Below are positions 2,791 through 41,977 of a stretch of DNA of 41,977 nucleotides, one piece after another. Source of the DNA: a virus (taxonomy: Duplodnaviria > Heunggongvirae > Uroviricota > Caudoviricetes). Every line of letters starts with the position of its first letter. The first letter of the stretch is position 1. The stretch covers positions 1 through 41,977 of the IMG/VR virus record IMGVR_UViG_2563366853_000004; one strand, 5' to 3'. The notes under the pieces are model-generated. The model worked only from the letters and a program-made list of their open reading frames with translations, was not told the origin of the DNA and searched no databases. Position numbers and translations under genes: made by a program.

Positions 2791-3135
2791 TTAGTCCTTG
2801 CGTAACTCGCTAATTCTTCTGTAAGTCTCTGGTGCTTTGTTTCCGTGTATCTTCATTTCAGACTTCAACAGAGCAACGAGGGAATCCCATTCGTTGAGGA
2901 TTCCTTTGAATGCCGGAACGCGCTTTGCAACCTTGTCGAATGAATCTCTGATTTCTGGAATCTGCTCAACAAGTGCAACGCATCGCCGAAAGTCTGCTGC
3001 GTCATGGGGAGCGCCGAAGTGATGACCATAGATATTCTTTTTCAGTCCACATGCGATTGAGGCAAGAGTTGCGCTACTGATGCCGACATCGCCAGTCGAT
3101 TGCCATTTCAAAACCTTCATAGCCAAATCTGACAT
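2791..3135 (-). CDS. Hypothetical protein (not a lambda gene)
   Basis: ORF with GGAG 7 nt upstream of the ATG at 3135 (MSDLAMKVLKWQSTGDVG…); same strand as the leftward operon; not recognised. Confidence 0.5.
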   Translation of the reverse strand: MSDLAMKVLKWQSTGDVGISSATLASIACGLKKNIYGHHFGAPHDAADFRRCVALVEQIPEIRDSFDKVAKRVPAFKGILNEWDSLVALLKSEMKIHGNKAPETYRRISELRKD

Positions 3136-3212: not shown

Positions 3213-3524
3213 TTATTCGATGCGCAATCCTGGTATTTCGCCTTTTGATATTGCTAAGTCATAAATTTGCGCAGCACTATACCCATCTCGCATCCATGAA
3301 TCTAAGGCGCGAACAGTCTCGCTACGCTTTTTATCTTCTCTCTCATTTTTGATATCAACGAGGACATCAACGCAATTAAGGCAAATGTGGATTTTGTCCT
3401 TACATTCAATCATGGCGGCTTTACCATGATTTCCGCCACACAGTGAGCATAAATCTTCAGGGTCTGGCTGGTATTTCTGTAACGTTAGAGTGTTGAATGT
3501 TGAACAGACCATAATCATCTCCAT
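3213..3524 (-). CDS. Hypothetical Cys-rich (Zn-finger-like) small protein
   Basis: 103-aa ORF with C-x2-C … C-x2-C spacing (CSLCGG … CLNC); alternative ATG starts at 3518 and 3512; no clear SD. Confidence 0.45.
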   Translation of the reverse strand: MEMIMVCSTFNTLTLQKYQPDPEDLCSLCGGNHGKAAMIECKDKIHICLNCVDVLVDIKNEREDKKRSETVRALDSWMRDGYSAAQIYDLAISKGEIPGLRIE

Positions 3525-3583
3525 AAAACAAAACCCGCCGTAGCGAGTTCAGATAAAAGAAATCCCCGCTAGTGCGAGGATTG

Positions 3584-4789
3584 TTATTCATTGCCGATAT
3601 TCACCTTTATCGCGAACACCTTTACCGGTTTATCACCGAAGTGCGGATGTGTGATTGTCTTGATTTCATATCCGTCATACGGGACGTCAATTCTGCGACT
3701 GAAATCGTCGCGCTTCGGATATCCCTTTGTGATAATCAGGCGGCCATACTCGCGGAACATGATTCGCTTATTCCAGTAGTCATTACACAGGCGATACTCT
3801 TCCGTCTTCTCTCCGCGAATCATGGCATCGAAGTATTCACCTTTAACGGCAAGTTGCAGGTTAGCCACGGTTAACTCCTGCTTCGGTGCTGCTGGCATTT
3901 CACGCCAGTGCGTAACTGAGTGCGGATCCGGATATTCGGTGCCATCATCCCAGCGATTACCATTCCACATTGCAGACCACATCTCACCGTCTTCATACAT
4001 GACCATTACCGGAATTAACTTATCCGGCATTCGCTCACTACAGCTTATCCAACCATCCGGAGTTACCGGAGAGTTGCCAGCCAGTCTACGCAAAACAGCC
4101 TTAACCGCCTCAATACGGTCATCATCGCAATTTTCCAGCGTATCTATGCGGTCGAGCATGATGATGGCGTTATCAATATCAGGATTGCCGGTCCACTCAT
4201 TACCGCGATTGGATTCGGCAGCCTGGTTGCCACGTACTGGTTGATTCTCGGCTTTACCCTGTCTGTCGTCGCTGCATGAATGCCCTTCCAGCCAGACCAG
4301 TGCTTGTCGCATGAAATACGCAATATGCTTGCCGTGGTAATCGTCTTCATCGATGTGAAAAGCGATACTGCGGATATATTCAATTGCGTTTTCAATGGCC
4401 TCTAACGCTATCGGTGCTGGCGGAGTGGTATATAGTTTTCGACATTTGTTTATCCAACCGGCATGGTCAGGCGTGTCTGTAAAGCGCAAATCGTCTTCGT
4501 AGCCCTCACGACTACGTTCTTTCCATTCCGTCCACGGAACACCGCTATTCCAAGTGGGGCGAGTGCAGGACTGATACAGAACAGGCTCTGCTTCCAGCGA
4601 TGCCAGCACAATTCGTGCCAGCTCACGCACTACTTCCGGGGGCGCGTAACGGTCATTCAGGTCATCCCACAGGCGTAGCATGTTATCGCTACTAGGGTGA
4701 ACATCCTCGTTAGTTCCGGCAAGCGCACTAATAACCTCATCGGCTGCCTCAATAATTTTCAGAGCTTGTTCTCTGGTAATAGTGGTCAT
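3584..4789 (-). CDS. Multidomain protein: unknown N-terminal region, DUF551-like middle segment, ASCH/PUA-like C-terminal domain
   Basis: 401-aa ORF; the DGWISCSERMP…THWREMP segment resembles DUF551 of lambdoid early-left proteins; the C-terminal KGEYFDAMIRGEKTEEYR…ITKGYPK segment resembles ASCH. Domain calls are from memory. Confidence 0.6.
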   Translation of the reverse strand: MTTITREQALKIIEAADEVISALAGTNEDVHPSSDNMLRLWDDLNDRYAPPEVVRELARIVLASLEAEPVLYQSCTRPTWNSGVPWTEWKERSREGYEDDLRFTDTPDHAGWINKCRKLYTTPPAPIALEAIENAIEYIRSIAFHIDEDDYHGKHIAYFMRQALVWLEGHSCSDDRQGKAENQPVRGNQAAESNRGNEWTGNPDIDNAIIMLDRIDTLENCDDDRIEAVKAVLRRLAGNSPVTPDGWISCSERMPDKLIPVMVMYEDGEMWSAMWNGNRWDDGTEYPDPHSVTHWREMPAAPKQELTVANLQLAVKGEYFDAMIRGEKTEEYRLCNDYWNKRIMFREYGRLIITKGYPKRDDFSRRIDVPYDGYEIKTITHPHFGDKPVKVFAIKVNIGNE

Positions 4790-7380: not shown

Positions 7381-7869
7381 TTATTTGATAAGAAGTGAAG
7401 GTTTCCCAACCTTGAGTTGAGCACCGGGAATATTTATTCCTGCTTTTAGTTGGTGCTTGATTGCCAGTTTGTCGGCTTTAATTGTCGTTTCAAACTCAAC
7501 GTATTCAGGAGGAAGGGCGCTTGAGTCGATTATTTCTACAATTTCTGACGGTTTGCGGATTGTTACCTGGTGAATACCTGCTCGAATATTTTTCTTGCCA
7601 ACCATTTCAAGCGATGACGCTATATATGATTTGATGCTGTCAATCTTATTTTGAATTACTGCGGCTCGCTCATTCAGTGACTTTGCCTCTTCCTTGAGGC
7701 GTTCGGCATAACCAGATTCATTTTTAATGACGGAAAGAAGTTGTTCTATTTTATCGGTAAATTCTCCTTCCATGCCTTCTATTGTGTCAGCAATCATCTC
7801 TGGTTCTAAATCTGAATCCATCAATTTTGCGTATTCATTGGCAATTTCATATAGTTTGCTCACTGGCAA
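7381..7869 (-). CDS. Siphovirus Gp157-like protein (RecT-associated)
   Basis: 162-aa translation resembles the Gp157 family usually found next to RecT-type recombinases; overlaps the recT 3' end. Confidence 0.55.
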   Translation of the reverse strand: MPVSKLYEIANEYAKLMDSDLEPEMIADTIEGMEGEFTDKIEQLLSVIKNESGYAERLKEEAKSLNERAAVIQNKIDSIKSYIASSLEMVGKKNIRAGIHQVTIRKPSEIVEIIDSSALPPEYVEFETTIKADKLAIKHQLKAGINIPGAQLKVGKPSLLIK

Positions 7870-9631: not shown

Positions 9632-10255
9632 CTATGCGGCCTCGGAAGGAAGTCCAATCATCTTATTCAAATCTTCTACCCGTAAAGCAGGAAGTGCTGT
9701 ACTTGCTTTATCTGCTTCTTTTGGTAGCAATTCTTTGCTTTCAGGCCAAACTTCAATAAGTCGCTTAACTGTTGTGACTGAGTTCAAAGCAGCCCATACA
9801 TTTGATTCGATATCCTTTTTCTTGGCTTCAAGTTTTTGTTGCAATGCGCAGATTTCATCAAACCTTTTTGTTATTTCGTGTTCTGCGCTAAACATGCATT
9901 TATCTTTGGTCGGAGTAGGGAGCAATATATCTTCGCCGTTGCCGTCTTTCCCATATGAATGCCATCCAACCCTTCTGCCAGATACAGTCAGATAAATTGA
10001 AGTAGAACTAACATCGTATGAGTAAAATGAACATCCCATCTTTTCAAGTTCTTCACTTATAGCTACCAACTTGGATGATAACTGATCCACTTCCTCAGTT
10101 TTCTTTTTACCGCCAAACGCAATAACTCTGGCGTCAAGTGCAAGCTGGTTCTTTAACTTTGTTACTTCTTCAAGTTCAGTGAAAACCCCAGACTTAATTA
10201 AAGCGTTACGAGCGATTTCCTCTTTCATTCTCGTAGTTAAGCGGATTGATGACAT
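9632..10255 (-). CDS. Hypothetical 207-aa protein immediately downstream of N, AT-rich
   Basis: GAGG 7 nt upstream of the ATG at 10255 (MSSIRLTTRMKEEIARNAL…); no TM segments or recognisable motifs; occupies the ral/sieB position of the pL operon. Confidence 0.6.
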   Translation of the reverse strand: MSSIRLTTRMKEEIARNALIKSGVFTELEEVTKLKNQLALDARVIAFGGKKKTEEVDQLSSKLVAISEELEKMGCSFYSYDVSSTSIYLTVSGRRVGWHSYGKDGNGEDILLPTPTKDKCMFSAEHEITKRFDEICALQQKLEAKKKDIESNVWAALNSVTTVKRLIEVWPESKELLPKEADKASTALPALRVEDLNKMIGLPSEAA

Positions 10256-10266
10256 ATTAATTCCTC

Positions 10267-10593
10267 TCAAATAAGTGGTTTGCTGCCTAATTTCATTTTC
10301 TGGCGACCAACACAAGTCACGCCCATTTCACTGCGTGGCTTGCTGTACCATGTGCGCTGATTCTTGCGCTCAATACGTTGCAGGTTGCTTTCAATCTGTT
10401 CGTGGTATTCAGCCAGCACCGTAAGGTCTATCGGATTCAGTGCGCTTTCTACTCGTGATTTCGGTTTGCGATTCAGCGAGAGAATAGGGCGGTTAACTGG
10501 TTTTGCGCTTACCCCAACCAACAGGGGATTTGCTGCTTTCCATTGAGCCTGTTTCTCTGCGCGACGTTCGCGGCGGCGTGTTTGTGCATCCAT
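10267..10593 (-). CDS. N: Antitermination protein N
   Basis: MDAQTRRRERRAEKQAQWKAANPLLVGVSAKPVNRPILSLNRKPKSRVESALNPIDLTVLAEYH… is lambda N with a few C-terminal differences. Confidence 0.95.
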   Translation of the reverse strand: MDAQTRRRERRAEKQAQWKAANPLLVGVSAKPVNRPILSLNRKPKSRVESALNPIDLTVLAEYHEQIESNLQRIERKNQRTWYSKPRSEMGVTCVGRQKMKLGSKPLI

Positions 10594-16442: not shown

Positions 16443-16611
16443 CCCATCACAAACCATTCAATACCAGAAAGAAAGCGTCGAACGAGCTTTAACGTGCGCT
16501 AACTGCGGTCAGAAACTGCATGTGCTGGAAGTTCACGTGTGCTCCGATTGCTGCGCAGAACTGATGAGCGATCCGAATAGCTCAATGTACGAGGAAGAAG
16601 ACGATGAATGA
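16435..16611 (+). CDS. ninF: NinF
   Basis: [36 protein letters not shown]…ELMSDPNSSM matches lambda NinF. Confidence 0.85.
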   Translation: MLSPSQTIQYQKESVERALTCANCGQKLHVLEVHVCSDCCAELMSDPNSSMYEEEDDE

Positions 16612-17326
16612 GTTAATAAATGGCAATGCCATCAAAATGACAAGCATTGAAATCGCTGAGTTGGTGGGTAAGCGTCATGACAATGTGAAACGTACCATCG
16701 AAACGCTGGCTAAAAATGGTGTTATCCGGCTTCCTCAAATTGAGGATTGTGGAAGAATCAATGGGTTAGGCTTAAATCAAAGTTTTTGTGTGTATGTATT
16801 CGAAGGCGAACAAGGAAAGCGAGACAGTATTGTCGTTGTAGCCCAGTTGTCGCCGGAATTCACCGCTCGTCTTGTTGACCGTTGGCGAGAGCTTGAAGAA
16901 ACTGCGGTTAATATCCCCAAAACGCTACCAGAAGCGTTGCGCCTTGCTGCTGATCTTGCTGAGCAGAAAATGCAACTGGAAAACCAGCTCGCAATTGCCG
17001 CACCTAAAGTTGAGTTTGCCGATCGCGTTGGCGAGGCCAGCGGAATTTTGATTGGAAACTTTGCAAAGGTTGTCGGTATTGGTCCAAACAAACTGTTTGC
17101 GTGGATGCGCGATCACAAAATCCTTATTGCTTCAGGTTCCCGGCGCAATGTGCCAATGCAGGAATATATGGATCGCGGCTATTTCACAGTGAAAGAAACA
17201 GCGGTCAACACAAATCACGGAATACAGATATCGTTCACCACAAAAATCACCGGGCGTGGTCAACAGTGGCTGACCAGAAAGCTGCTCGATAACGGAATGC
17301 TGAAAGTAACAGGGGAGGCTGCTTAA
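16604..17326 (+). CDS. Phage antirepressor-like protein (Rha/Ant N-terminal with KilA-C type C-terminal domain)
   Basis: 240-aa ORF; domain architecture recalled from Ant/KilAC-family antirepressors; not a lambda gene. Confidence 0.6.
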   Translation: MNELINGNAIKMTSIEIAELVGKRHDNVKRTIETLAKNGVIRLPQIEDCGRINGLGLNQSFCVYVFEGEQGKRDSIVVVAQLSPEFTARLVDRWRELEETAVNIPKTLPEALRLAADLAEQKMQLENQLAIAAPKVEFADRVGEASGILIGNFAKVVGIGPNKLFAWMRDHKILIASGSRRNVPMQEYMDRGYFTVKETAVNTNHGIQISFTTKITGRGQQWLTRKLLDNGMLKVTGEAA

Positions 17327-31776: not shown

Positions 31777-33153
31777 TTGGCTACATGGCAACAGGCTGGT
31801 AATTCAGGCGCGCTTCTTGCCGGGTTAGGCGGCATGAACTCCAACGCTCCAAGAGCAAGTGATGCAGACGCCACGCTTGCATACATTCGACAGAATAACG
31901 AGATGGAGCGTTCAGGACGTAATAACGTTGGCTTGCAGGCTTTACAGGGCATTTCATCTGTCATGGATATGTATAAGCAGATGGATCAGCAGAAGCGACA
32001 GCAAGAGTTTCAGCAGGCTTATGCTGATGCATATACATCTGGTGACCGCGATGCAATGCGAAAGCTGGCATCACAGTATCCTGAGCAGCTTGACGCTGTA
32101 AGAAACGGCATGAAATTTGTCGATGAAGACCAGCGTTCCACTGTCGGTACACTGGCAGCAAGTGCCAGACTCGCAGCTTCATCTCCAGAAGCCATGATGT
32201 CATGGTTGCAGAACAACTCATCTGAGCTTACTCGTGCCGGAGTAGACCCTCTGGATGTGGCGAAAATGTATCAGCAAAATCCACAAGGTTTCACAGAGTT
32301 TGTTGATCACCTTGGAATGGCTGCACTTGGTCCGATTGATTACTTCAATGTTCAGGACAAGATAGCTGGTCGTGAGATTGACCGAGGCAGACTGGCAGAG
32401 ACAATCCGCAGCAATCAGGCTGGCGAGGCGCTAACAGCGCGTGGTCAGAATATCACGATGCGCGGTCAGGATTTATCGATGCAGAGAGCATCAATGAAAG
32501 GGGCGGTTGGGAATAATGAGCGTACAGTTCAGTTAGCAGATGGCAGAACTGTAACGGTAGGCGGGAAGCTTCACGGCGCTGGGGCTAATGCGTTCTACGA
32601 AGGTATCGACAACGAGGGGAATATGGTTCGCGTTCCTGCTGGTTCTATTGCCGCTCCGGCTACATCGGCAGCAAGCGCGCAGAATTACGCAATGAAGAAA
32701 GATCTTGATGCAATTTCTGGTGCATCAATTGACGATCTTGGCTTCATGACTGGCATTACAGGCTCTTCAGGTTCTCCTGCTCTTGGTGCAGATATTCGTA
32801 GCCGTGCATCTGGTGGTGATCAGAGGAAACTATACAACGCTGCACAGCGAATCCAAGGAAAGATGCAGAATCAGGGCATTGCAGCAGCCAGAGACATGGG
32901 GGCATCCGGTATCAACACCGTTGCAGAAGCAAAGATGTATTTTCAAGGTATGCCACAGGTTGATTTCTCAAGCCCTGAAGCACTGCAACAATCAATGCGC
33001 GACATTCAGCAATATACCGACAATTACAACCAGCAATATAACGTTAATGTCGGTAATGGCGGGAAGAAATCATCAAGGCAACAGCCAGCTACTCAGCAAT
33101 CAGCAGGAGGTAGCTACACGTCAAAATCAGGCATTCAATTTACGGTGGAATGA
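31777..33153 (+). CDS. Ejection protein, gp20-like
   Basis: 458-aa ORF with TTG start preceded by GGAGG (6-nt spacer); position matches P22 gene 20. Confidence 0.6.
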
Positions 33154-34991
33154 TGAAAGTAACTGCAAACGGTAAGACATTTACCTTCCCTGATGGTACG
33201 AGCACGGAAGATATTGGCACCGCCATTGATGAGTATTTTGCTGGTCAGGCTGTTCAGCAACAAACAGTTAATCAGGCCAATAATGCACCAACACGGGAAG
33301 AACCATCATTGATGCAACAAGCTGGCGATTGGCTCACTGGTGGTCAAAGTGCAGGGCAAATTGCAGAACAGGCTGGTCGTGGTCTGGTAAACATACCATT
33401 TGACGTATTACAGGGCGGCGCAAGTCTGATTAATGCAATCAGTCAGGGGCTTGGTGGCCCCAAGGTTTTGGATGATGTTTATCGTCCAGTAGACAGACCG
33501 ACAGACCCCTACGCTCAAGCTGGAGAAACAATTGGCGGGTATTTAGTTCCAGGAGTTGGAACGGCAGGAAGCATGGCTATTGGATCACTGGCAGAGGCCG
33601 CAAATCAGAAAGGTGATTTCGCACAAAATGCAGCTAAAAATGCCGGAGTTAACCTTGCCGCTCAGGGTGTTCTTTCCGCAGCAGCAAAGGGAATAGGGCG
33701 TGGAATAACGGCTATAAAAGGTGATATTGCGCCAGAAGTGGCAAAGAAAATTGCCACATCAGAATCGATGGGCGTGACACCAATGACATCTGATGTTATC
33801 CCGCCGAAAAATGCTTTCACTCGCGGACTTACTCAAGATGCTGAGGGGGCTTTGCTCGGGACAGGCTCAAAGCGAGCGGAGCAATATGCAACGCGTAGTA
33901 AGCTGGTAAGCAATTATTTTGACCGTTTTGGTGAGTACAACCCTGATGATGTGGTGAGATCTCTGACCACCACGTTAAGGGGACGGAAGGATGCCGCTGG
34001 CGCTGTTATCAATGACGTCACCAATAAAATGGGTAATGCCGCAGTTGATACCACAAATACCATGAATGCTCTGAATACAGCGATCGCAAGACAGGAACGG
34101 CTTGGGACTTCTGCCAATCAAAACCTGCTTACATCCTTGCGTAACCTACGTGAAGAATTAGCAACCCCTGCAACTGATTTGGATGTTACGTTTGATCTCT
34201 TGCGCCAGCACAGAACAGCATTTAGATCTAATGTTCAGGGAGATGCCATGGTCTTCCCCAACCAGGCAAAAGCAGCTACCAATATGGTAGAGAATGCAAT
34301 GTCAAAAGACCTTCGTAACGCAGTTGCCAAAAACCTCGGTGCTTCAGACGCAGCAAAATACCTTAAAGCAAATTCCGATTATGCAAACGTTTATAATAAG
34401 GTGCTTAATAAAAACATTGCTAACAAGCTCAACAAGGCAAGCAGTGAAGCCAGTCCTGAACTTATAAATACCGTTGTATTAAGCAGAAAACCATCTGACG
34501 TGAAACGAATCTGGAGCGCACTTGATGATAAAGGGAAAGATGCTATGCGTGCAGCTTACGTCAGCAAAATAGCGGAAAAGGCCGGTGACTCTCCAGCCAA
34601 GTTCATCACTGAAGTTAATAAGCTGAAATCTCAGTCAGGCGGTGAAATTTACAACACTATTTTTTCTGGAAAGCACATGAAAGAACTTGATGCTCTTCAT
34701 GAAGTTCTACAGCAAGCAGCAAGATCAGACACCGCAAATGTAGTAACTCAGACGGGGCAATCGCAAGCCAACAGGATAAGGACGATTGGCGCAACTACGA
34801 CTCTTGGCGTATCAATGGGGCTTGAGGCTGGTTTCGGTGCAATGATGCGCTTGTATGAATCCAAAGCAGCAAGGAATGCGCTCTTACGTCTGGCAAACAC
34901 TAAAGCTGGAACGCCAGCTTATGAAAGAGCGCTAAATCAGGCGGCTACTGCCGTGCGCCCGCTCTTAGTTAACGAAGCTACCCGGCAGTAG
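33150..34991 (+). CDS. Ejection protein, gp16-like
   Basis: 613-aa ORF overlapping the upstream stop; N-terminus [33 protein letters not shown] as recalled for P22 gp16. Confidence 0.7.
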
Positions 34992-35013
34992 CACTGTAAG
35001 CCAAGGACGGCAT

Positions 35014-35508
35014 TTATTTTATAGTTTTTATGAATTCTTTATTAAATCCCTTCGCTTCTCCGGGGTATCTTCCGAAGACAATTTTTATAAAAACAGAAAA
35101 AATAAAGATAGCAACGCTTAACAACAATTGCAGTATCATTGGAACCCAAAGAACTACAGGCTCTATATTCATGAAACCAAATATTCTTCCGGCGATCATG
35201 GCGAAGTACCACACTGTTATCAGCAAACTTAGTGGCATATGAATTACTGATATTACCAATCCAAGAGCATCAGTAATTCTGTTTTCAAATTTTTCAGGGG
35301 AAAACTTTTCTTTAAGGTAATTCAGTGCGCAGGCCTCATTCTCTGGATTTTCAGCATTTTTCCCTATAGCAATAGAAATCTCAGATATCCTTGATTCAAT
35401 TCTTTTACGTTTAATAAAACTAGAAAAAAAGAACCACGCAATCTGCAACCCTATCCCCAGAAATAGAGTTGCGGCAACTAGCACAGCGTAACTCATAGAA
35501 TCAGACAC
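35014..35508 (-). CDS. AT-rich three-TM inner-membrane protein; candidate SieA-like superinfection-exclusion protein
   Basis: AGGAGG 6 nt upstream of GTG 35508 (alternative ATG 35496); hydrophobic segments [41 protein letters not shown] and [24 protein letters not shown]; opposite strand to the late operon, at the P22 sieA position. Confidence 0.5.
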
Positions 35509-35538
35509 ACCAACCTCCTTAGTTTTGCGCAGGATACC

Positions 35539-35904
35539 ATGAAAAAAGTTAACATTGGAAACGTACCAAAGATGCTCGTTCCGCTCTTTGAGAGCGGTAC
35601 AATTGTGTTTTGTAGAGACTTTCCAGAATGGCAACGCCTGCATCAAAAACTTGGCGTTGACGTGCATGACTCGGACGCCAACGGAGCGTCTCATACAATG
35701 AGTAGCGAGAATGGTGTTTTGCATGTGATAGGCGTGTTCAATGGCAAACTATCTACTATTGCCCATGAGTGCGCTCACATGGCATTCGATATCTGCTCAA
35801 GGGTAGGTGTTGATGTTGAACCAGGAAGAGCCAACGAGACTTACTGCTACTTAATGAGCAGGCTTGTTGAGTTCTGCGAGCGACATATCAAAAAGCCGGA
35901 GTGA
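35539..35904 (+). CDS. Small HExxH-motif protein (putative Zn-metallopeptidase-like)
   Basis: 121-aa ORF containing [10 protein letters not shown]; its stop lies within a bidirectional terminator hairpin. Confidence 0.5.
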
Positions 35905-35930
35905 CCCGGCTTGATTATTACTTTTTGCTG
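35893..35930. terminator. Bidirectional intrinsic terminator between the HExxH gene and the convergent small gene
   Basis: AAGCCGG-agtgac-CCGGCTT hairpin flanked by T-tracts on both strands. Confidence 0.55.
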
Positions 35931-36097
35931 TCTGGAGTTCGCTTATCCAATACCCAGCCATGACCTGGCTTTGTTGTTGGTGGAAGCCTTTCGTTGTCCT
36001 TGACGGTTGCAAAATTGTCTTTCTTACCGCCGCGTGGGCCAACTTCTTGGTATATTCCGCCGTTTTTTCCTGTGTTTTCACCTGGTTTTTTCGCCAT
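35918..36097 (-). CDS. Small Gly/Lys-rich hydrophilic protein (59 aa)
   Basis: GAGG 6 nt upstream of the ATG at 36097 (MAKKPGENTGKNGGIYQEVGPRGGKKDNFATVKDNERLPPTTKPGHGWVLDKRTPDSKK); possible own promoter (TTGACT … AATATT) at about 36110..36150. Confidence 0.5.
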   Translation of the reverse strand: MAKKPGENTGKNGGIYQEVGPRGGKKDNFATVKDNERLPPTTKPGHGWVLDKRTPDSKK

Positions 36098-36187
36098 GAT
36101 ATACCTCAACATACACCCGTTATTGGGCGATTAAATATTGATCTCATTTTATAAGTAGTCAATATGGCCCAGGTAAATGCAAAAATT

Positions 36188-36211
36188 AACCCACCTTCAG
36201 GTGGGTTTTTT
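36188..36211. terminator. Hairpin terminator at the mnt 3' end (possibly bidirectional)
   Basis: AACCCACC-ttca-GGTGGGTT followed by TTTTTG; overlaps the mnt stop codon. Confidence 0.5.
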
Positions 36212-36448
36212 GTACAAATCCTTCAGCGTATCAAACACCATCTTCTTAACAAGCTCTGACTGCTCATCAGCGATGCGTTCCGCATCGTCTCGATAGCCTG
36301 AAATTTTGGATGGCTTTGATACAGCATCAGTCACTATCTGAACTAATTCTGAATTAAGAGAGCGGCCATTGGATTTGGCTCGCTGTTTTAGTTTTTCCTT
36401 TAATTCGTAAGGTAGCCGCAGATTAAATTGCGGGTCATCTCTTCCCAT
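36197..36448 (-). CDS. mnt: Mnt-type ribbon-helix-helix repressor (P22 immI)
   Basis: MGRDDPQFNLRLPYELKEKLKQRAKSNGRSLNSELVQIVTDAVSKPSKISGYRDDAERIADEQSELVKKMVFDTLKDLYKK closely matches P22 Mnt as recalled. Confidence 0.85.
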   Translation of the reverse strand: MGRDDPQFNLRLPYELKEKLKQRAKSNGRSLNSELVQIVTDAVSKPSKISGYRDDAERIADEQSELVKKMVFDTLKDLYKKPT

Positions 36449-36511
36449 TCTTGATGCCTCGCTTTTGTGAGTGGATCGGCATCTTATTATCTGCTGGTTG
36501 CATCCTCAATA

Positions 36512-36526
36512 AGACCACAGTGGTCT
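36512..36526. promoter_or_regulatory. Candidate Mnt operator (perfect palindrome AGACCAC-A-GTGGTCT)
   Basis: 15-bp palindrome between mnt and the tailspike start, similar in form to the P22 Omnt sequence as I recall it. Confidence 0.5.
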
Positions 36527-36594
36527 CTTTGTTTGATTAATAATGCATCACTGTGGCAATGCTGCGGCGATTCCTTGTATCTGGAGCAAATTAA

Positions 36595-39540
36595 ATGACA
36601 GACATTACAGCCAATGTTGTAGTGAGTATGCCTTCGCAACTCTTCACTATGGCGCGTTCTTTTAAAGCCGTAGCCAATGGCAAAATTTATATCGGTAAAA
36701 TTGACACTGACCCGGTAAATCCTGAAAACCAGATTCAGGTTTATGTAGAGAACGAAGACGGTTCTCACATTCCTGTTTCGCAACCAATAATCATTAACGC
36801 TGCTGGATATCCGGTATATAACGGACAGATTGCCAAATTCGTAACCGTGCAAGGCCATTCTATGGCTGTTTATGATGCGTATGGTACACAGCAGTTCTAT
36901 TTTCCGAATGTGCTGAAGTATGATCCTGATCAGTTACGACAGCAATTAGAAGACCCAGATGGAGCGAATAAATACCCAAAACTTCAGATAGCAAGATGGA
37001 GAGACAGTTATGATGTAAGAGGTTGGGGGGCTATTGGTGATGGTGTTCATGATGATACATCAGCTCTATCAGAATTACTTTCTGTTGCAACAGGTGGTGA
37101 AAAGATAGATGGGCGAGGGCTTACTTTTAAAGTATCAACTCTTCCAGATGTCAGTCGATTTAAAAATGCTCGTTTTTTATTTGAGAGAATACCGGGTCAG
37201 CCTCTTTTTTATGCTTCTGAAGATTTTATCCAAGGAGAGTTATTTAAAATTACAGATACACCGTGGTACAACGCCTGGACGCAGGATAAAACGTTTGTAT
37301 ATGACAATGTCATCTATGCGCCTTTTATGGCTGGAGACCGCCATGGTGTAAATAACCTCCATGTTGCATGGGTTCGCTCAGGAGATGACGGGAAGACCTG
37401 GACAACGCCGGAATGGCTTACAGATTTACATGAAAACTATCCCACAGTTAACTATCACTGCATGAGTATGGGGGTTGTCAGAAATCGCCTTTTTGCTGTA
37501 ATTGAGACGCGGACCGTGAGCGGAAATAAACTGCAGGTTGCAGAGTTGTGGGATCGCCCAATGAGTCGCAGCCTTCGCGTTTATGGTGGTATAACGAAAG
37601 CAGCAAATCAGCAAGTCGCTTATATTCGCATTACTGATCACGGATTATTTGCTGGTGATTTTGTCAACTTCTCAAACTCTGGTGTTACAGGTGTTACCGG
37701 GAATATGACGGTGACTACTGTCATTGATAAAAATACTTTTACAGTTACGACGCAAAATACCCAGGATGTGGATCAGAATAACGAGGGTAGATACTGGAGT
37801 TTTGGTACATCATTTCACTCGTCACCATGGAGAAAAACCAGTCTTGGAACTATTCCTTCTTTTGTTGACGGAAGCACTCCTGTTACTGAGATTCACAGTT
37901 TTGCGACGATTAGCGATAACAGTTTTGCTGTTGGCTACCATAATGGTGATATTGGTCCACGCGAGCTTGGGATACTCTATTTCTCTGATGCTTTCGGTTC
38001 TCCTGGTAGCTTTGTTCGCAGACGCATACCTGTAGAATATGAGGCGAATGCATCTGAGCCATGTGTAAAATATTATGATGGCATTCTGTATCTGACGACC
38101 AGGGGGACATTAAGTACTCAACCCGGTAGTTCATTGCACAGAAGCTCTGATTTAGGTACATCATGGAATTCTCTTCGCTTCCCAAATAATGTTCATCACT
38201 CAAACCTTCCTTTTGCCAAAGTTGGCGATGAGCTGATTATTTTTGGCAGTGAGCGCGCATTTGGTGAGTGGGAAGGAGGAGAACCTGATAACCGTTATGC
38301 AGGAAATTATCCAAGAACATTTATGACCAGAGTTAACGTCAATGAGTGGAGTCTGGATAATGTAGAGTGGGTTAATGTTACTGATCAGATTTATCAGGGC
38401 GGAATAGTTAACTCTGCGGTTGGTGTTGGTTCAGTTTGTATCAAAGACAACTGGCTGTACTACATTTTCGGTGGGGAAGACTTTCTAAACCCATGGAGCA
38501 TAGGGGATAACAACAGAAAATATCCTTATGTTCACGATGGTCACCCGGCTGATTTGTATTGTTTCAGGGTGAAAATTAAACAGGAAGAATTTGTTTCAAG
38601 GGATTTTGTCTACGGAGCCACTCCTAACAGAACGCTTCCTACTTTTATGTCGACGTCAGGCGTGAGGACGGTTCCTGTACCCGTTGATTTCACAGATGAT
38701 GTTGCCGTCCAGTCACTGACTGTCCATGCAGGTACATCAGGACAAGTTCGCGCGGAAGTCAAACTTGAGGGTAATTACGCCATTATTGCGAAGAAAGTAC
38801 CGTCTGATGATGTTACCGCTCAGAGATTAATCGTTAGCGGAGGTGAAACAACGTCTTCAGCAGATGGTGCAATGATAACGTTGCATGGTTCCGGAAGCAG
38901 TACTCCACGTCGCGCGGTATATAACGCACTCGAACATCTTTTTGAGAACGGAGATGTTAAACCTTATCTTGATAATGTAAATGCTCTTGGTGGTCCGGGA
39001 AACAGGTTCTCGACAGTTTATCTTGGCTCCAATCCTGTGGTTACCAGTGACGGAACATTAAAGACAGAGCCGGTCTCTCCTGACGAAGCATTGCTGGATG
39101 CCTGGGGTGACGTCAGGTATATCGCTTATAAATGGCTGAACGCTGTCGCTATAAAGGGGGAAGAAGGGGCGAGGATACATCATGGTGTAATCGCGCAGCA
39201 ACTTCGTGATGTTCTTATTTCTCACGGACTCATGGAAGAAGAAAGCACAACATGCCGCTATGCCTTTCTTTGCTATGACGATTATCCCGCAGTATATGAT
39301 GACGTCATTACTGGCCAAAGGGAAATGCCGCTGACTGATAATGACGGGAGCATCATTGTTGATGAGGATGATAATCCAGTGATGGTAATGGAAGACATCA
39401 TTGAGCGCGTTGAAATAACGCCAGCAGGATCTAGATGGGGGGTCAGACCTGATCTCTTATTCTATATCGAGGCGGCATGGCAGCGCAGAGAAATAGAAAG
39501 AATAAAAGCTAGGTTAGACTTAATAGAAGGGAAGCACTAA
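36595..39540 (+). CDS. Tailspike: P22-type N-terminal head-binding domain, endosialidase-like catalytic region, C-terminal intramolecular chaperone domain
   Basis: N-terminus [58 protein letters not shown] matches the conserved P22 tailspike N-domain; the central region is unlike P22 gp9 and its endosialidase assignment is from memory of CUS-3/K1F; the last ~160 aa resemble the self-cleaving chaperone domain with a candidate cleavage motif VVTSDGTLK. Confidence 0.8.
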
Positions 39541-39684
39541 ATGTTTCGTTGGCGTCAAAAATATGAACTGCTCACATAAAGAAGTAAGTACATTGGCAAA
39601 AAATATTGACGTCAACGAAATTAAATATAAAACATCATGCAGACATATTACCAATATTAATATAAGGTAATAAAAATATAATTT

Positions 39685-39711
39685 ACAAAAAAGCCCGTTG
39701 GAAGCGACGGG
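39685..39711 (-). terminator. Intrinsic terminator oriented against the tailspike gene
   Basis: GCCCGT-tggaagcg-ACGGGC followed by TTTTTTG on the minus strand. Confidence 0.5.
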
Positions 39712-39968
39712 CATTAACCGCGGTAATGGATAAATTATTAATGTTTTTAGATTGTGAACGATATCATATTGTGCGGAAGTAGTGAAGTAACCATGTAAAA
39801 TGATTGTTTCATAGCCTATGAGACACACAAGGCTTTGTGCTCTTCGATAGTTGTTAAGGCGGATCACTCTACATTCTCATCAAGCCAATCCGCCCACCAC
39901 TGCATCATTTCTCTGCGCTTATCGAGATACTGAGCATGGTTGTAAATTCAACTAACCAAGTCCGTTGA

Positions 39969-40011
39969 CAAAAAATTAGCGCAAGAGGACAAAAAATCAC
40001 CTTGCGCTAAT
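39969..40011 (-). terminator. sib/tI: int retroregulation hairpin and terminator
   Basis: Perfect 11-bp inverted repeat ATTAGCGCAAG / CTTGCGCTAAT with 15-nt loop, followed by TTTTTTG on the minus strand, directly outside the P arm of attR; matches lambda sib/tI as recalled. Confidence 0.75.
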
Positions 40012-40156
40012 GCTCTGCCTCAGGTCACTAATACTATCTAAGTAGTTGATTCATAGTGACTGGATATGTTGTGTTTTGTAGTATTATGCAGTCTATTATT
40101 TAGACTAAATCTTTCATAACATATTGATATTTACAGTGTTTTCTGTTTCTCGTTCA

Positions 40157-40171
40157 GCTTTTTTATACTAA
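40157..40171. repeat. attR common core GCTTTTTTATACTAA, preceded by the lambda P arm
   Basis: Exact core repeat; upstream sequence (…CAGGTCACTAATACTATCTAAGTAGTTGATTCATAGTGACTGGATATGTTGTGTTTT…) matches the lambda P arm; downstream CTTGAGCGAAACGGG is the host attB arm. Confidence 0.9.
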
Positions 40172-40261
40172 CTTGAGCGAAACGGGAAGGTAAAAAGACA
40201 AAAAGTTGTTTTTAATACCTTTAAGTGATACCAGATGGCATTGCGCCATCTGGCAGAGTGA

Positions 40262-40738
40262 TTAACTAAACATCGCAGTAATCGAGGCACTCGCCAGAGA
40301 GTGAAAATGAACGTTAAACCCGACCATCGCGCCGCTGGCACCTTCATCGACATCAATACGTTCTACATCCAGCGCGTGAACGGTAAAAATGTAGCGATGG
40401 GTTTCGCCTTTCGGCGGCGCTGCGCCATCGTACCCGGTTTTACCAAAGTCGGTACGCGTCTGCAAAACGCCGTCTGGCATAGCTACCAGACCAGAGCCAA
40501 ACCCTTGCGGTAATACGCGGGTATCAGCGGGTAAATTAACAACTACCCAGTGCCACCAGCCGGAGCCGGTTGGCGCATCCGGGTCATAGCAGGTGACAAC
40601 AAAACTTTTCGTTCCCGCAGGAACATCATCCCACGCCAGATGCGGTGAAATATTATCGCCATCGTAACCCATGCCGTTAAAGACATGACGATGCGGCAGC
40701 TTATCGCCATCGCGCAGATCGTTACTGATGAGTTTCAT
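40262..40738 (-). CDS. ybhB: YbhB (PEBP/RKIP-family protein), host gene flanking lambda attB
   Basis: 158-aa translation with a PEBP-like signature (…CYDPDAPTGSGWWHWVVVNLPA…); recalled as the gene to the right of attB. Confidence 0.85.
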   Translation of the reverse strand: MKLISNDLRDGDKLPHRHVFNGMGYDGDNISPHLAWDDVPAGTKSFVVTCYDPDAPTGSGWWHWVVVNLPADTRVLPQGFGSGLVAMPDGVLQTRTDFGKTGYDGAAPPKGETHRYIFTVHALDVERIDVDEGASGAMVGFNVHFHSLASASITAMFS

Positions 40739-40846
40739 TAGAATGCCTCCGGGAAACCTCGGCCTTCAGACCGGGGAGGAAAGGAGGCGGTTTTCCGACT
40801 AACTGTACTTTGCATAATCACATTTTCCTCTTTAGTATGTGAACAC

Positions 40847-41977
40847 ATGAAACGCGCATATAAATACCGGTTTTACCCGACAACTGAGCAGGCTGAGCTT
40901 TTAGCTCAGACGTTTGGCTGTGTGCGCTTCGTCTACAATTCCATCCTTCGTTGGCGTACCGATGCGTACTACGAGCGAAAAGAAAAGATCGGTTATCTAC
41001 AGGCCAACGCTCGCCTTACGGCGCTCAAAAAAGAGCCTGAATACATATGGCTGAATGATGTTTCCTGCGTTCCCCTCCAGCAGTCGTTGCGCCACCAACA
41101 AGCCGCCTTTGCTAACTTCTTTGCCGGACGAGCTGCATATCCGGCTTTCAAAAGCAAACGGCACAAACAGGTGGCTGAGTTCACTGCCAGCGCGTTTAAA
41201 CACCGTGACGGCGAGTTGTATATAGCAAAGAGCAAGTCGCCGCTGGATGTTCGCTGGAGTCGAGAATTACCATCTGCGCCGTCAACCGTTACCATTTCCA
41301 GAGATAGCGCTGGCAGGTACTTTGTTTCCTGCCTGTGTGAGTTTGAACCTGTATCAATGCCTGTTACCGCTAAAACGGTCGGCATTGATGTGGGCTTAAA
41401 AGATTTATTCGTCACCGATACCGGATTCAAAACCGACAATCCCCGCCACACCGCTAAATATGCGAAGCGATTAACGCTGCTACAGCGACGTTTAAGCAGG
41501 AAGCAAAAAGGCTCAAGAAACCGAATTAAAGCCCGCTTAAAGGTCGCCCGACTCCACGCGAAAATCGCCGATTGCCGGATGGACAATCTGCACAAGTTGT
41601 CCCGCAAACTGATTAACGAAAACCAAGTTGTTTGCGTCGAATCCCTCAAGGTGAAAAACATGATCCGCAACCCGAAGCTGTCTAAAGCAATAGCTGACGC
41701 AGGCTGGAGCGAACTTGTTCGCCAGCTCCAGTACAAAGGCAAATGGGCCGGGCGGTCAGTGGTCGCCATTGACCAGTATTTACCGTCCTCAAAATGCTGT
41801 AGTTGCTGCGGTTTCACCATGCAAAAAATGCCTCTTAATGTTCGTAAATGGCACTGCCCTGAATGCGGCGCAGACCATGATCGCGACATTAACGCGGCAC
41901 GTAATATTAAAGCTGCCGGGCTGGCAGTGTTAGCCCACGGAGAGCCTGTAAACCCTGAATCGCAGCACGCGGCTTAG
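40847..41977 (+). CDS. tnpB: TnpB (IS200/IS605-family OrfB; RuvC-like RNA-guided endonuclease)
   Basis: 376-aa ORF with N-terminal MKRAYKYRFYPT, RuvC-I-like GIDVGLKD, C-terminal zinc finger CCSCC…CPECG and RuvC-III-like DHDRDINAARNI; no tnpA nearby. Confidence 0.85.
   Translation: MKRAYKYRFYPTTEQAELLAQTFGCVRFVYNSILRWRTDAYYERKEKIGYLQANARLTALKKEPEYIWLNDVSCVPLQQSLRHQQAAFANFFAGRAAYPAFKSKRHKQVAEFTASAFKHRDGELYIAKSKSPLDVRWSRELPSAPSTVTISRDSAGRYFVSCLCEFEPVSMPVTAKTVGIDVGLKDLFVTDTGFKTDNPRHTAKYAKRLTLLQRRLSRKQKGSRNRIKARLKVARLHAKIADCRMDNLHKLSRKLINENQVVCVESLKVKNMIRNPKLSKAIADAGWSELVRQLQYKGKWAGRSVVAIDQYLPSSKCCSCCGFTMQKMPLNVRKWHCPECGADHDRDINAARNIKAAGLAVLAHGEPVNPESQHAA

Follow-up and report, generated by a model that had tools for sequence, protein, structure and literature searches.

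The window, by which the whole analysed stretch of 41,977 nucleotides is meant (IMG/VR record IMGVR_UViG_2563366853_000004), is a mosaic P22-like (Lederbergvirus) prophage of E. coli. A pectinesterase-family gene (1-1284) and a PEBP-family gene (40262-40738) border the prophage, and a lambda-type integrase is encoded in the window. The right half of the window matches HK620, vB_EcoP-720R6, CUS-3 and their relatives with 93-97%.

The locus is situated between the homologues of gene 16 and gene 9 in the P22-like late operon, and mnt is the sole gene of the immI region found there. It belongs to the variable region named 'ant moron' by Villafane et al. 2008 (PMC2629481). The rest of this moron (35014..36112) comprises a sieA-like gene (35014-35724, minus strand; PHROG 7745 'superinfection exclusion SieA-like', 1.9e-108), an hkcC-like gene (35539-35904, plus strand) and an orf59a/YjzC-like gene (35918-36112, minus strand). 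A bidirectional terminator was revealed by the terminator scan at 35893-35912. In addition, the scan of both strands yielded the bidirectional intrinsic terminator t-mnt (36188..36207), whose loop contains the mnt stop codon. The RNA of t-mnt folds with -13.9 and -13.8 kcal/mol (z-scores -4.1 and -3.2), and its counterpart is annotated as tMNT in HK620.

The mnt gene itself (36197..36448, minus strand) is an ORF of 83 amino acids that combines a ribbon-helix-helix DNA-binding domain with a C-terminal tetramerisation domain. The N-terminal domain matches the Pfam family Arc (PF03869, 2.8e-22, residues 3-50) and the C-terminal domain the family Repressor_Mnt (PF11423, 2.2e-18, residues 53-80). 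Furthermore, the solved fragments of P22 Mnt were matched, namely PDB 1mnt (N-terminal domain; 2.8e-34, residues 3-77) and 1qey (tetramerisation domain; 3e-12). P22 Mnt is 76% identical to the protein of the window, which reads DNA with the strand R-D-D-P-Q-F-N-L-R (Gln6 class). The gene contains a recombination joint: codons 57-84 share 90-100% of their nucleotides with P22, codons 1-56 only 47-80%. The DNA-binding domain, the promoter Pmnt and the operator therefore represent one separate, anciently diverged module.

The next gene to the right encodes the tailspike (36595..39540, plus strand), which consists of a P22-type head-binding domain, a K1 endosialidase and a C-terminal chaperone domain (Pfam matches PF09008, PF12217, PF12219, PF12195, PF12218 and PF13884). 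It is preceded by a conserved boundary sequence (36548..36594, plus strand) with the ribosome-binding site GGAG (36583-36586). This boundary is homologous to the DNA upstream of gene 9 in P22, HK620 and CUS-3 and is kept in all mnt-only loci. To its left lies an AT-rich junction segment (36527..36547), which varies more than any other part between mnt and the tailspike gene and differs among the relatives by many insertions and deletions.

According to blastn, positions 33001-36448 are colinear with gene 16-sieA-hkcC-orf59a-mnt of P22; the homology stops at 36448 and restarts at 36548. Thus 99 bp (36449-36547) stand in place of the 1,386 bp which in P22 harbor Pant, the Arc operator, arc, sar, ant and t-ant. 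When the whole window was searched by tblastn, nothing significant was obtained with P22 Arc, whose sole match was mnt itself, or with P22 Ant, whose best match (E 0.099) lay inside the Rha/KilAC gene of the nin region. No Rfam match to sar RNA occurred in 34900-36900, apart from sub-threshold matches to terminators, and a sar-like RNA in 36449-36594 was ruled out on the same grounds. A 43-aa ORF with a GTG start in 36449-36594 was rejected as a hidden small gene: it was judged not to be conserved among the relatives because this region is full of insertions and deletions. In some relatives the gap between mnt and gene 9 measures about 420 bp; the only ORF in it has 16-21 codons, starts with a duplicated gene 9 start and was not accepted as a gene.

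The operator candidate is a perfect 7-1-7 palindrome, AGACCACAGTGGTCT, at 36512-36526. It ends 68 bp before the tailspike start codon (ATG, 36595) and forms the core of the predicted Mnt operator TAAGACCAC-A-GTGGTCTCT (36510..36528, centre at 36519). An earlier reading made from the sequence only had described an orphan mnt and an intact, perfect palindrome without arc and ant, with the palindrome about 70 bp before the tailspike gene as the next rightward gene; all of these features were recovered. Perfect 7-N-7 palindromes are not rare in the window, where three were observed and 2.56 are expected by chance. The significance of this one results from its position, which is that of the annotated Mnt operator of P22, and from its conservation.

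The predicted Pmnt (36474..36509, minus strand) consists of a -35 element TTGAGG (36509-36504), a 17-nt spacer and a -10 element TAAGAT (36486-36481). Its inferred start is near 36474, a Shine-Dalgarno sequence GAGG follows at 36460-36457, and the operator abuts the -35 element, with its centre at about -45 from the inferred start. This geometry is that of the annotated Pmnt of P22. In 37 of 38 distinct intergenic sequences from mnt-only loci, the best minus-strand promoter had the form TTGNNN-17-TA(A/T)GAT and occupied the homologous position. Promoters were scored with a simple sigma-70 weight matrix, built from approximate hexamer frequencies, and 150-nt pieces of the window served as background. 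On this scale Pmnt reached 9.6-9.8 bits, which corresponds to about the 95th percentile of the background. It fits only 8 of 12 consensus positions and thus misses the cut-off (9 of 12) of the consensus scan, in which no promoter was found on either strand of the interval.

In P22, the annotated order is the mnt start, the -10 element of Pmnt overlapping the -35 element of Pant (TTGACA), the Arc operator, the -10 element of Pant (TATATT), the -35 element of Pmnt, the Mnt operator and arc. There, too, the Mnt operator, ATAGGTCCACGGTGGACCTGT, directly abuts the -35 element of Pmnt (TTGAGA, minus strand). The window shares with P22 the 17-nt spacer of Pmnt, the operator abutting the -35 element, the 7-1-7 palindrome and the terminator overlapping the mnt stop codon, but it lacks arc, ant, sar, the Arc operator and a strong Pant. 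The Arc operator sequence of P22 is gone from the segment between the Pmnt hexamers. Of Pant only a degenerate remnant is present (36476..36504, plus strand), in which TCGGCA (36476-36481) and TGCATC (36499-36504) are separated by 17 nt. In the alignment with P22 and the complete immI loci of the Gln6 class, these hexamers correspond to TTGACA and TATATT of P22, respectively. Both are degenerate in every mnt-only locus.

The arrangement from mnt to gene 9 is already known, common and not peculiar to this phage. An 'ant moron' with mnt as its only immI gene is described for ST64T, ST104, Para1, phage L, SE1 and ST160 (Villafane et al. 2008, PMC2629481; Zaworski et al. 2020, PMC8022706). The passages of these two papers that deal with the lone mnt leave its function open, and those passages make no mention of the operator, the promoters or selection. 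In such phages, transcription of mnt leads away from the tailspike gene, and the starts of the two genes are 135-150 bp apart. The annotated layout of ST160, SE1, Gally and vB_EcoP-720R6 is the same as in the window. Over the part from mnt to the tailspike gene, vB_EcoP-720R6 (99.6%) and Gally (97.1%) are nearly identical to the window. ST160 and SE1 show about 84.5% over the whole 1-kb region and share the junction and the operator core. From the other mnt-only morons the window differs by its K1 endosialidase tailspike and its P22-like left moron (sieA, hkcC, orf59a and the 3' end of mnt).

Of 5,426 complete E. coli genomes, 104 contained at least 80% of positions 36150-36700. Among the IMG/VR loci encoding an Mnt with at least 92% identity, all 64 were mnt-only with gene 9 adjoining, and their tailspikes were of many types. 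The mnt-only loci comprised 23 distinct nucleotide alleles of mnt encoding only 11 proteins, and the variable sites were distributed over the three codon positions as 12/7/32. Between E. coli-type and Salmonella-type mnt, which share the same junction, dN was 0.045 and dS 0.48 (dN/dS ~0.09).

The 38 distinct mnt-only intergenic sequences were aligned, and the divergence between the E. coli-type and the Salmonella-type lineage was calculated for each segment. It was 0.01 for the left operator half-site as well as for the inner right half-site, 0.12-0.22 for the Pmnt elements together with the leader (0.17-0.22 for the Pmnt elements alone) and 0.36 for the spacer following the operator, where 35% of the alignment cells were gapped. 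In contrast to the half-sites, the central base of the operator diverged by 0.87, and A, C, G and T all occurred there. Nearly invariant half-sites around a free centre are the signature that would be left by two symmetric dimers not contacting the central base pair. Judged by these substitution patterns, the Mnt protein and its operator are both kept by purifying selection. The operator core, or at least its left half, is also retained in mnt-only lineages with an Mnt of no more than 60-72% identity (L155, L171, L183/L206 and L217 among them). However, the right half-site is lost in five loci (L217-L220 and L222), a few others carry half-site mutations (L028, L036 and L056), and mnt contains a nonsense codon in two loci (L065 and L070).

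The DNA-reading strand of Mnt and the adjoining site covary. Proteins with R-(D/E/N)-D-P-Q-F-(N/K)-L-R always adjoin sites of the GACCAC-N-GTGGTC type. This holds for the mnt-only loci, for complete immI loci and for two loci (L113 and L116) that encode unrelated ribbon-helix-helix proteins of 146 amino acids with the same reading strand and palindrome core. In P22, epsilon34 and UPF_BP1 (...P-H-F-N-F-R) the site is GGTCCAC-N-GTGGACC, and in L225 and L226 (P-Q-F-R-I-R) it is GTCACAC-N-GTGTGAC. The half-site of the window is GTGGTCT in comparison to GTGGACC, the published optimum of P22 Mnt (PMC2726951). By this comparison, Mnt and the site of the window are apparently a matched pair of a class distinct from that of P22, namely Gln6/AAGACCAC in comparison to His6/AGGTCCAC. 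Binding of Mnt to the operator is predicted, and the covariation of Gln6/GACCAC and His6/GTCCAC across several lineages supports it. In P22 Mnt, His6 reportedly contacts a base and its replacement is said to alter the operator specificity, and the pairing of Gln6 and His6 with their sites fits this contact.

Contigs of uncultivated enterobacterial phages (L207-L216, L221 and L223) yielded complete immI regions of the Gln6 class, one of them in the background of an ES18/SPN3UB-like enterobacterial phage. Their operator core, ATAAGACCAC-N-GTGGT, and their reading strand RDDPQFNLR are as in the window. Unlike the window, they possess arc, ant and a strong Pant (TTGACA-17-CATTAT, 12-13.5 bits), and their Mnt is about 59% identical to that of the window. 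SPN3UB was considered as a known carrier of a complete Gln6-class immI region and rejected, since the reading strand and the site of its regulators differ; Erwinia phage Midgardsormr38, N7 and CUS-3 also differ.

These observations are best explained, with a chance put slightly above even, if the mnt-only form of the P22 immI region is a self-contained Mnt cassette that is expressed from the prophage and whose selected role is exerted in trans against the antirepressors of incoming phages. The compact unit left at the locus consists of mnt, the leftward Pmnt, one operator at the -35 element of Pmnt and the terminator. Mnt would be produced from the prophage via the predicted Pmnt and would bind the operator as a tetramer, thereby tuning its own synthesis and not shutting off Pmnt. 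Because the operator is located upstream of the -35 element and does not overlap the promoter, binding would set the Mnt level; Mnt is said to stimulate Pmnt in vitro. The tailspike gene would be transcribed by antiterminated read-through of the late operon across the moron and the two bidirectional terminators, as in P22. Where a superinfecting or co-resident phage possesses a complete mnt-arc-ant region with an operator of the same class, its Pant would be shut off by the resident Mnt. With Pant silenced, no antirepressor would be available to inactivate the resident repressor and to induce the prophage. Such silencing in trans would complement the function of the adjoining SieA-like exclusion gene, the other gene of this moron that is kept and expressed from the prophage.

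Candidate targets in trans exist in the complete Gln6-class loci with their strong Pant. Complete regions of this class were not found in the complete E. coli genomes, so the target in this host stays a candidate. It also has to be counted against a cassette acting in trans that the complete immI regions known from P22-like phages of E. coli and Salmonella use other specificities: those of P22, epsilon34 and UPF_BP1 belong to the His6/GTCCAC class, and N7 and CUS-3 have other regulators altogether. If the role were purely one in trans, the conservation of the operator in cis would need a separate explanation, and autoregulation is an assumption of the cassette proposed here.

A purely trans-acting role is what a stricter version of this idea implies. 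The lone Mnt might be a domesticated 'anti-antirepressor' immunity factor, kept by prophages that have lost ant themselves, solely to silence Pant of invading or co-resident phages of the same class and thereby to prevent induction by an antirepressor. The operator classes (His6/GTCCAC, Gln6/GACCAC and Gln6-Arg8/TCACAC) might then be specificities of immunity whose diversification is driven by an arms race. This version is tentative and rather improbable.

Control of the tailspike dosage is rather unlikely. Here, Mnt bound to the operator would repress a weak residual rightward promoter or act as a roadblock for late polymerases. All mnt-only loci indeed have the operator between the late genes and gene 9, and a -10-like TATTAT (36486-36491, plus strand) occurs upstream of it. 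According to Villafane et al. (PMC2629481), the ant moron of P22 affects the frequency of late transcripts reaching the tailspike gene, and Mnt and Arc may participate in this. The sequence-only reading had likewise proposed that Mnt was re-purposed for a promoter reading into the tailspike gene, a proposal to which the promoter scores are opposed. The best plus-strand score in the interval was 6.4 bits and thus did not exceed the background (median 6.37), whereas Pant of P22 and of the complete Gln6-class loci reached 12-15.7 bits; moreover, every mnt-only locus has degenerate Pant hexamers. TATTAT/TATGAT on the plus strand mirrors the -10 element of Pmnt and lacks a -35 partner. Some E. coli variants possess a T-run after the operator hairpin, but it is missing in the Salmonella-type loci, and the hairpin forms a weak RNA structure (about -9 kcal/mol for a 46-nt stretch, z-score -2.2); the operator was therefore rejected as an intrinsic terminator for late transcripts. 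Antiterminated late polymerases pass terminators, and a small repressor is unlikely to stop them. Finally, HK620, Sf6 and others make their tailspike without mnt.

HK620 is also relevant for the view that mnt and the palindrome are a non-functional relic, left by a recent deletion of arc and ant and drifting to loss. Its identity to the window amounts to 97.8% across hkcC, orf59a and t-mnt and to 93.6% at the boundary of gene 9, but it lacks 36228-36547, i.e. most of mnt, Pmnt and the operator, and only terminator remnants are annotated. P22 with the complete region, the window type with mnt only and HK620 with only the terminators can be arranged as a series of decay, the occasional nonsense alleles and operator mutations mentioned above would fit into it, and this option was raised for phage L by Zaworski et al. 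(PMC8022706). The lost right half-sites, the nonsense alleles and the deletion in HK620 show that the cassette is dispensable. Nevertheless, a relic is improbable, since the low dN/dS ratio was obtained for two mnt-only lineages that share a junction and are separated by a dS of about 0.5, the half-sites are far more conserved than the flanking non-coding DNA while the non-contacted centre varies freely, and the layout persists in the lineages with 60-72% Mnt identity.

Even less probable is that Mnt was taken over for host genes or for unrelated resident elements with GACCAC-N-GTGGTC sites. Purifying selection requires some target, and the loci L113 and L116 use the same palindrome core, so this type of site is not confined to immI. 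Against this, the scan of species-representative genomes with the operator pattern gave only 33 chance matches in unrelated taxa and none in Enterobacterales; a protein-based scan of these genomes yielded no relatives.

Control of another gene of the same prophage, either a neighbour in the moron or the Rha/KilAC antirepressor-like gene of the nin region (16604-17326; ANT/KilAC and Rha domains, PHROG 63 'anti-repressor Ant', 6.5e-96), the latter named in the sequence-only reading as an antirepressor that Mnt may control elsewhere, is hardly tenable, as further copies of the operator are missing from the 42-kb window, in which the weight matrix detected one site with 23.1 bits and a runner-up with 6.55 bits, under the shuffled controls (mean of maxima 9.5), and a pattern search with up to three mismatches found the operator itself only, and as the 160 bp before 16604 read as coding sequence inside the nin operon with no separate control region.

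Taken as a whole, the locus is real and conserved and looks functional. The idea of a retained system of mnt and operator has held up in so far as both look like a working pair, with the low dN/dS ratio of mnt and half-sites diverging by 0.01 in comparison to 0.12-0.36 in the flanks. The two targets that had been suggested for it, in the tailspike promoter and in the nin region, found no support.

For the mnt-only region of P22-like phages, the published question of whether the lone mnt has a new function or is a decaying remnant can be answered in part from the sequence: mnt, Pmnt and the operator are clearly held by purifying selection, and Pant is lost. The question is thereby sharpened to that of the target of a conserved repressor once its target in cis is gone, for which silencing of the antirepressors of other phages in trans is a concrete candidate. 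In addition, the rules of recognition by ribbon-helix-helix proteins may be informed by these two natural pairs, Gln6 with AGACCAC and His6 with GTCCAC.

The mnt gene contains a mosaic joint, which became apparent in a nucleotide comparison with P22 (window 36197-36295 versus 36296-36448). The 3' part of the gene, coding for the tetramerisation domain (codons ~57-84), shares 90-100% nucleotide identity with P22, whereas the DNA-binding half shares just 47-80%. The specificity module, made up of the DNA-binding domain, Pmnt and the operator, has thus been swapped as one unit.

At several loci (L025, L035, L052-L056, L061, L065 and L070), an insertion of ~280 bp lies between mnt and the tailspike gene 9. 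It is placed after a duplicate of the start of gene 9, comprising the ribosome-binding site and the codons one to four (MTDI...), and this extra start leads into a dead-end ORF of 16-21 codons upstream of the true tailspike start. The boundary sequence of gene 9 behaves like a recombination joint. In L065 and L070 (mnt at 3501-3752), Arg53 is replaced by a stop codon and Pro12 is also changed; L065 additionally possesses a mutated operator half-site (AAGATCAC). Both loci show the mnt-only cassette in the course of decay. The divergent mnt-only locus L171 carries an extra copy of the left half-site (TAAGACCAC) at ~7760-7775, which is ~20 bp downstream of the operator.

In the databases, PHROG 795 and the RefSeq records of ST160, SE1 and UPF_BP1 (NC_014900.1, NC_011802.1 and NC_047875.1) list Mnt under the name 'partition protein ATPase'. 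For an 83-aa ribbon-helix-helix repressor, this looks like an annotation error that has been propagated.

Besides mnt, the window harbors a Rha and KilAC/ANT antirepressor-like gene (16604-17326) within the nin region. The window has three perfect 7-N-7 palindromes in all; the one at 16732 (TCCTCAAATTGAGGA) is located inside this gene and is unrelated to the Mnt operator. An ORF on the minus strand (9632-10315), immediately left of the repressor gene, comprises a full-length nucleotide modification associated domain 5 (Nmad5; 1.6e-71). Unlike CUS-3, which possesses neuO with heptanucleotide repeats 3' of its endosialidase tailspike, the window showed no tandem repeats when these were looked for at 39541-40260, and the sole sizeable ORF there (39520-39867, minus strand) is without a family match. 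Both prophage ends can be recognised. At the left end (1-2489) are a host gene of the pectinesterase family (ybhC-like) and an integrase of the lambda type that bears an arm-binding domain; at the right end (40262-41977), a PEBP-family gene (ybhB-like) is followed by an IS605-type OrfB/TnpB gene running past the window edge. The genes at both ends suggest that the prophage is inserted in the classical attachment region of lambda.

Mnt-like proteins with P-Q-F-R-I-R, encoded beside GTCACAC-N-GTGTGAC palindromes (L225 and L226, each at ~2900-3000), represent a third class of specificity in nature. Three tandem GACCAC-N-GTGGTC-type palindromes also precede ribbon-helix-helix genes in L113 (7660-7760) and L116 (8160-8250); the encoded proteins (146-147 aa, MSREDPQFKLRMP...) are unrelated, and the contigs are not P22-like.

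The reading strand of the window Mnt (residues 6-11, window 36418-36433) is P-Q-F-N-L-R, and P22 Arc has exactly the same residues in its reading strand (PQFNLR; arc at 3640-3801 of the P22 locus L003). In complete immI loci of the Gln6 class, the Arc homologue is altered at that position (PNFNLR or PVFN(I/V)R). The specificities of the two repressors are apparently held apart.
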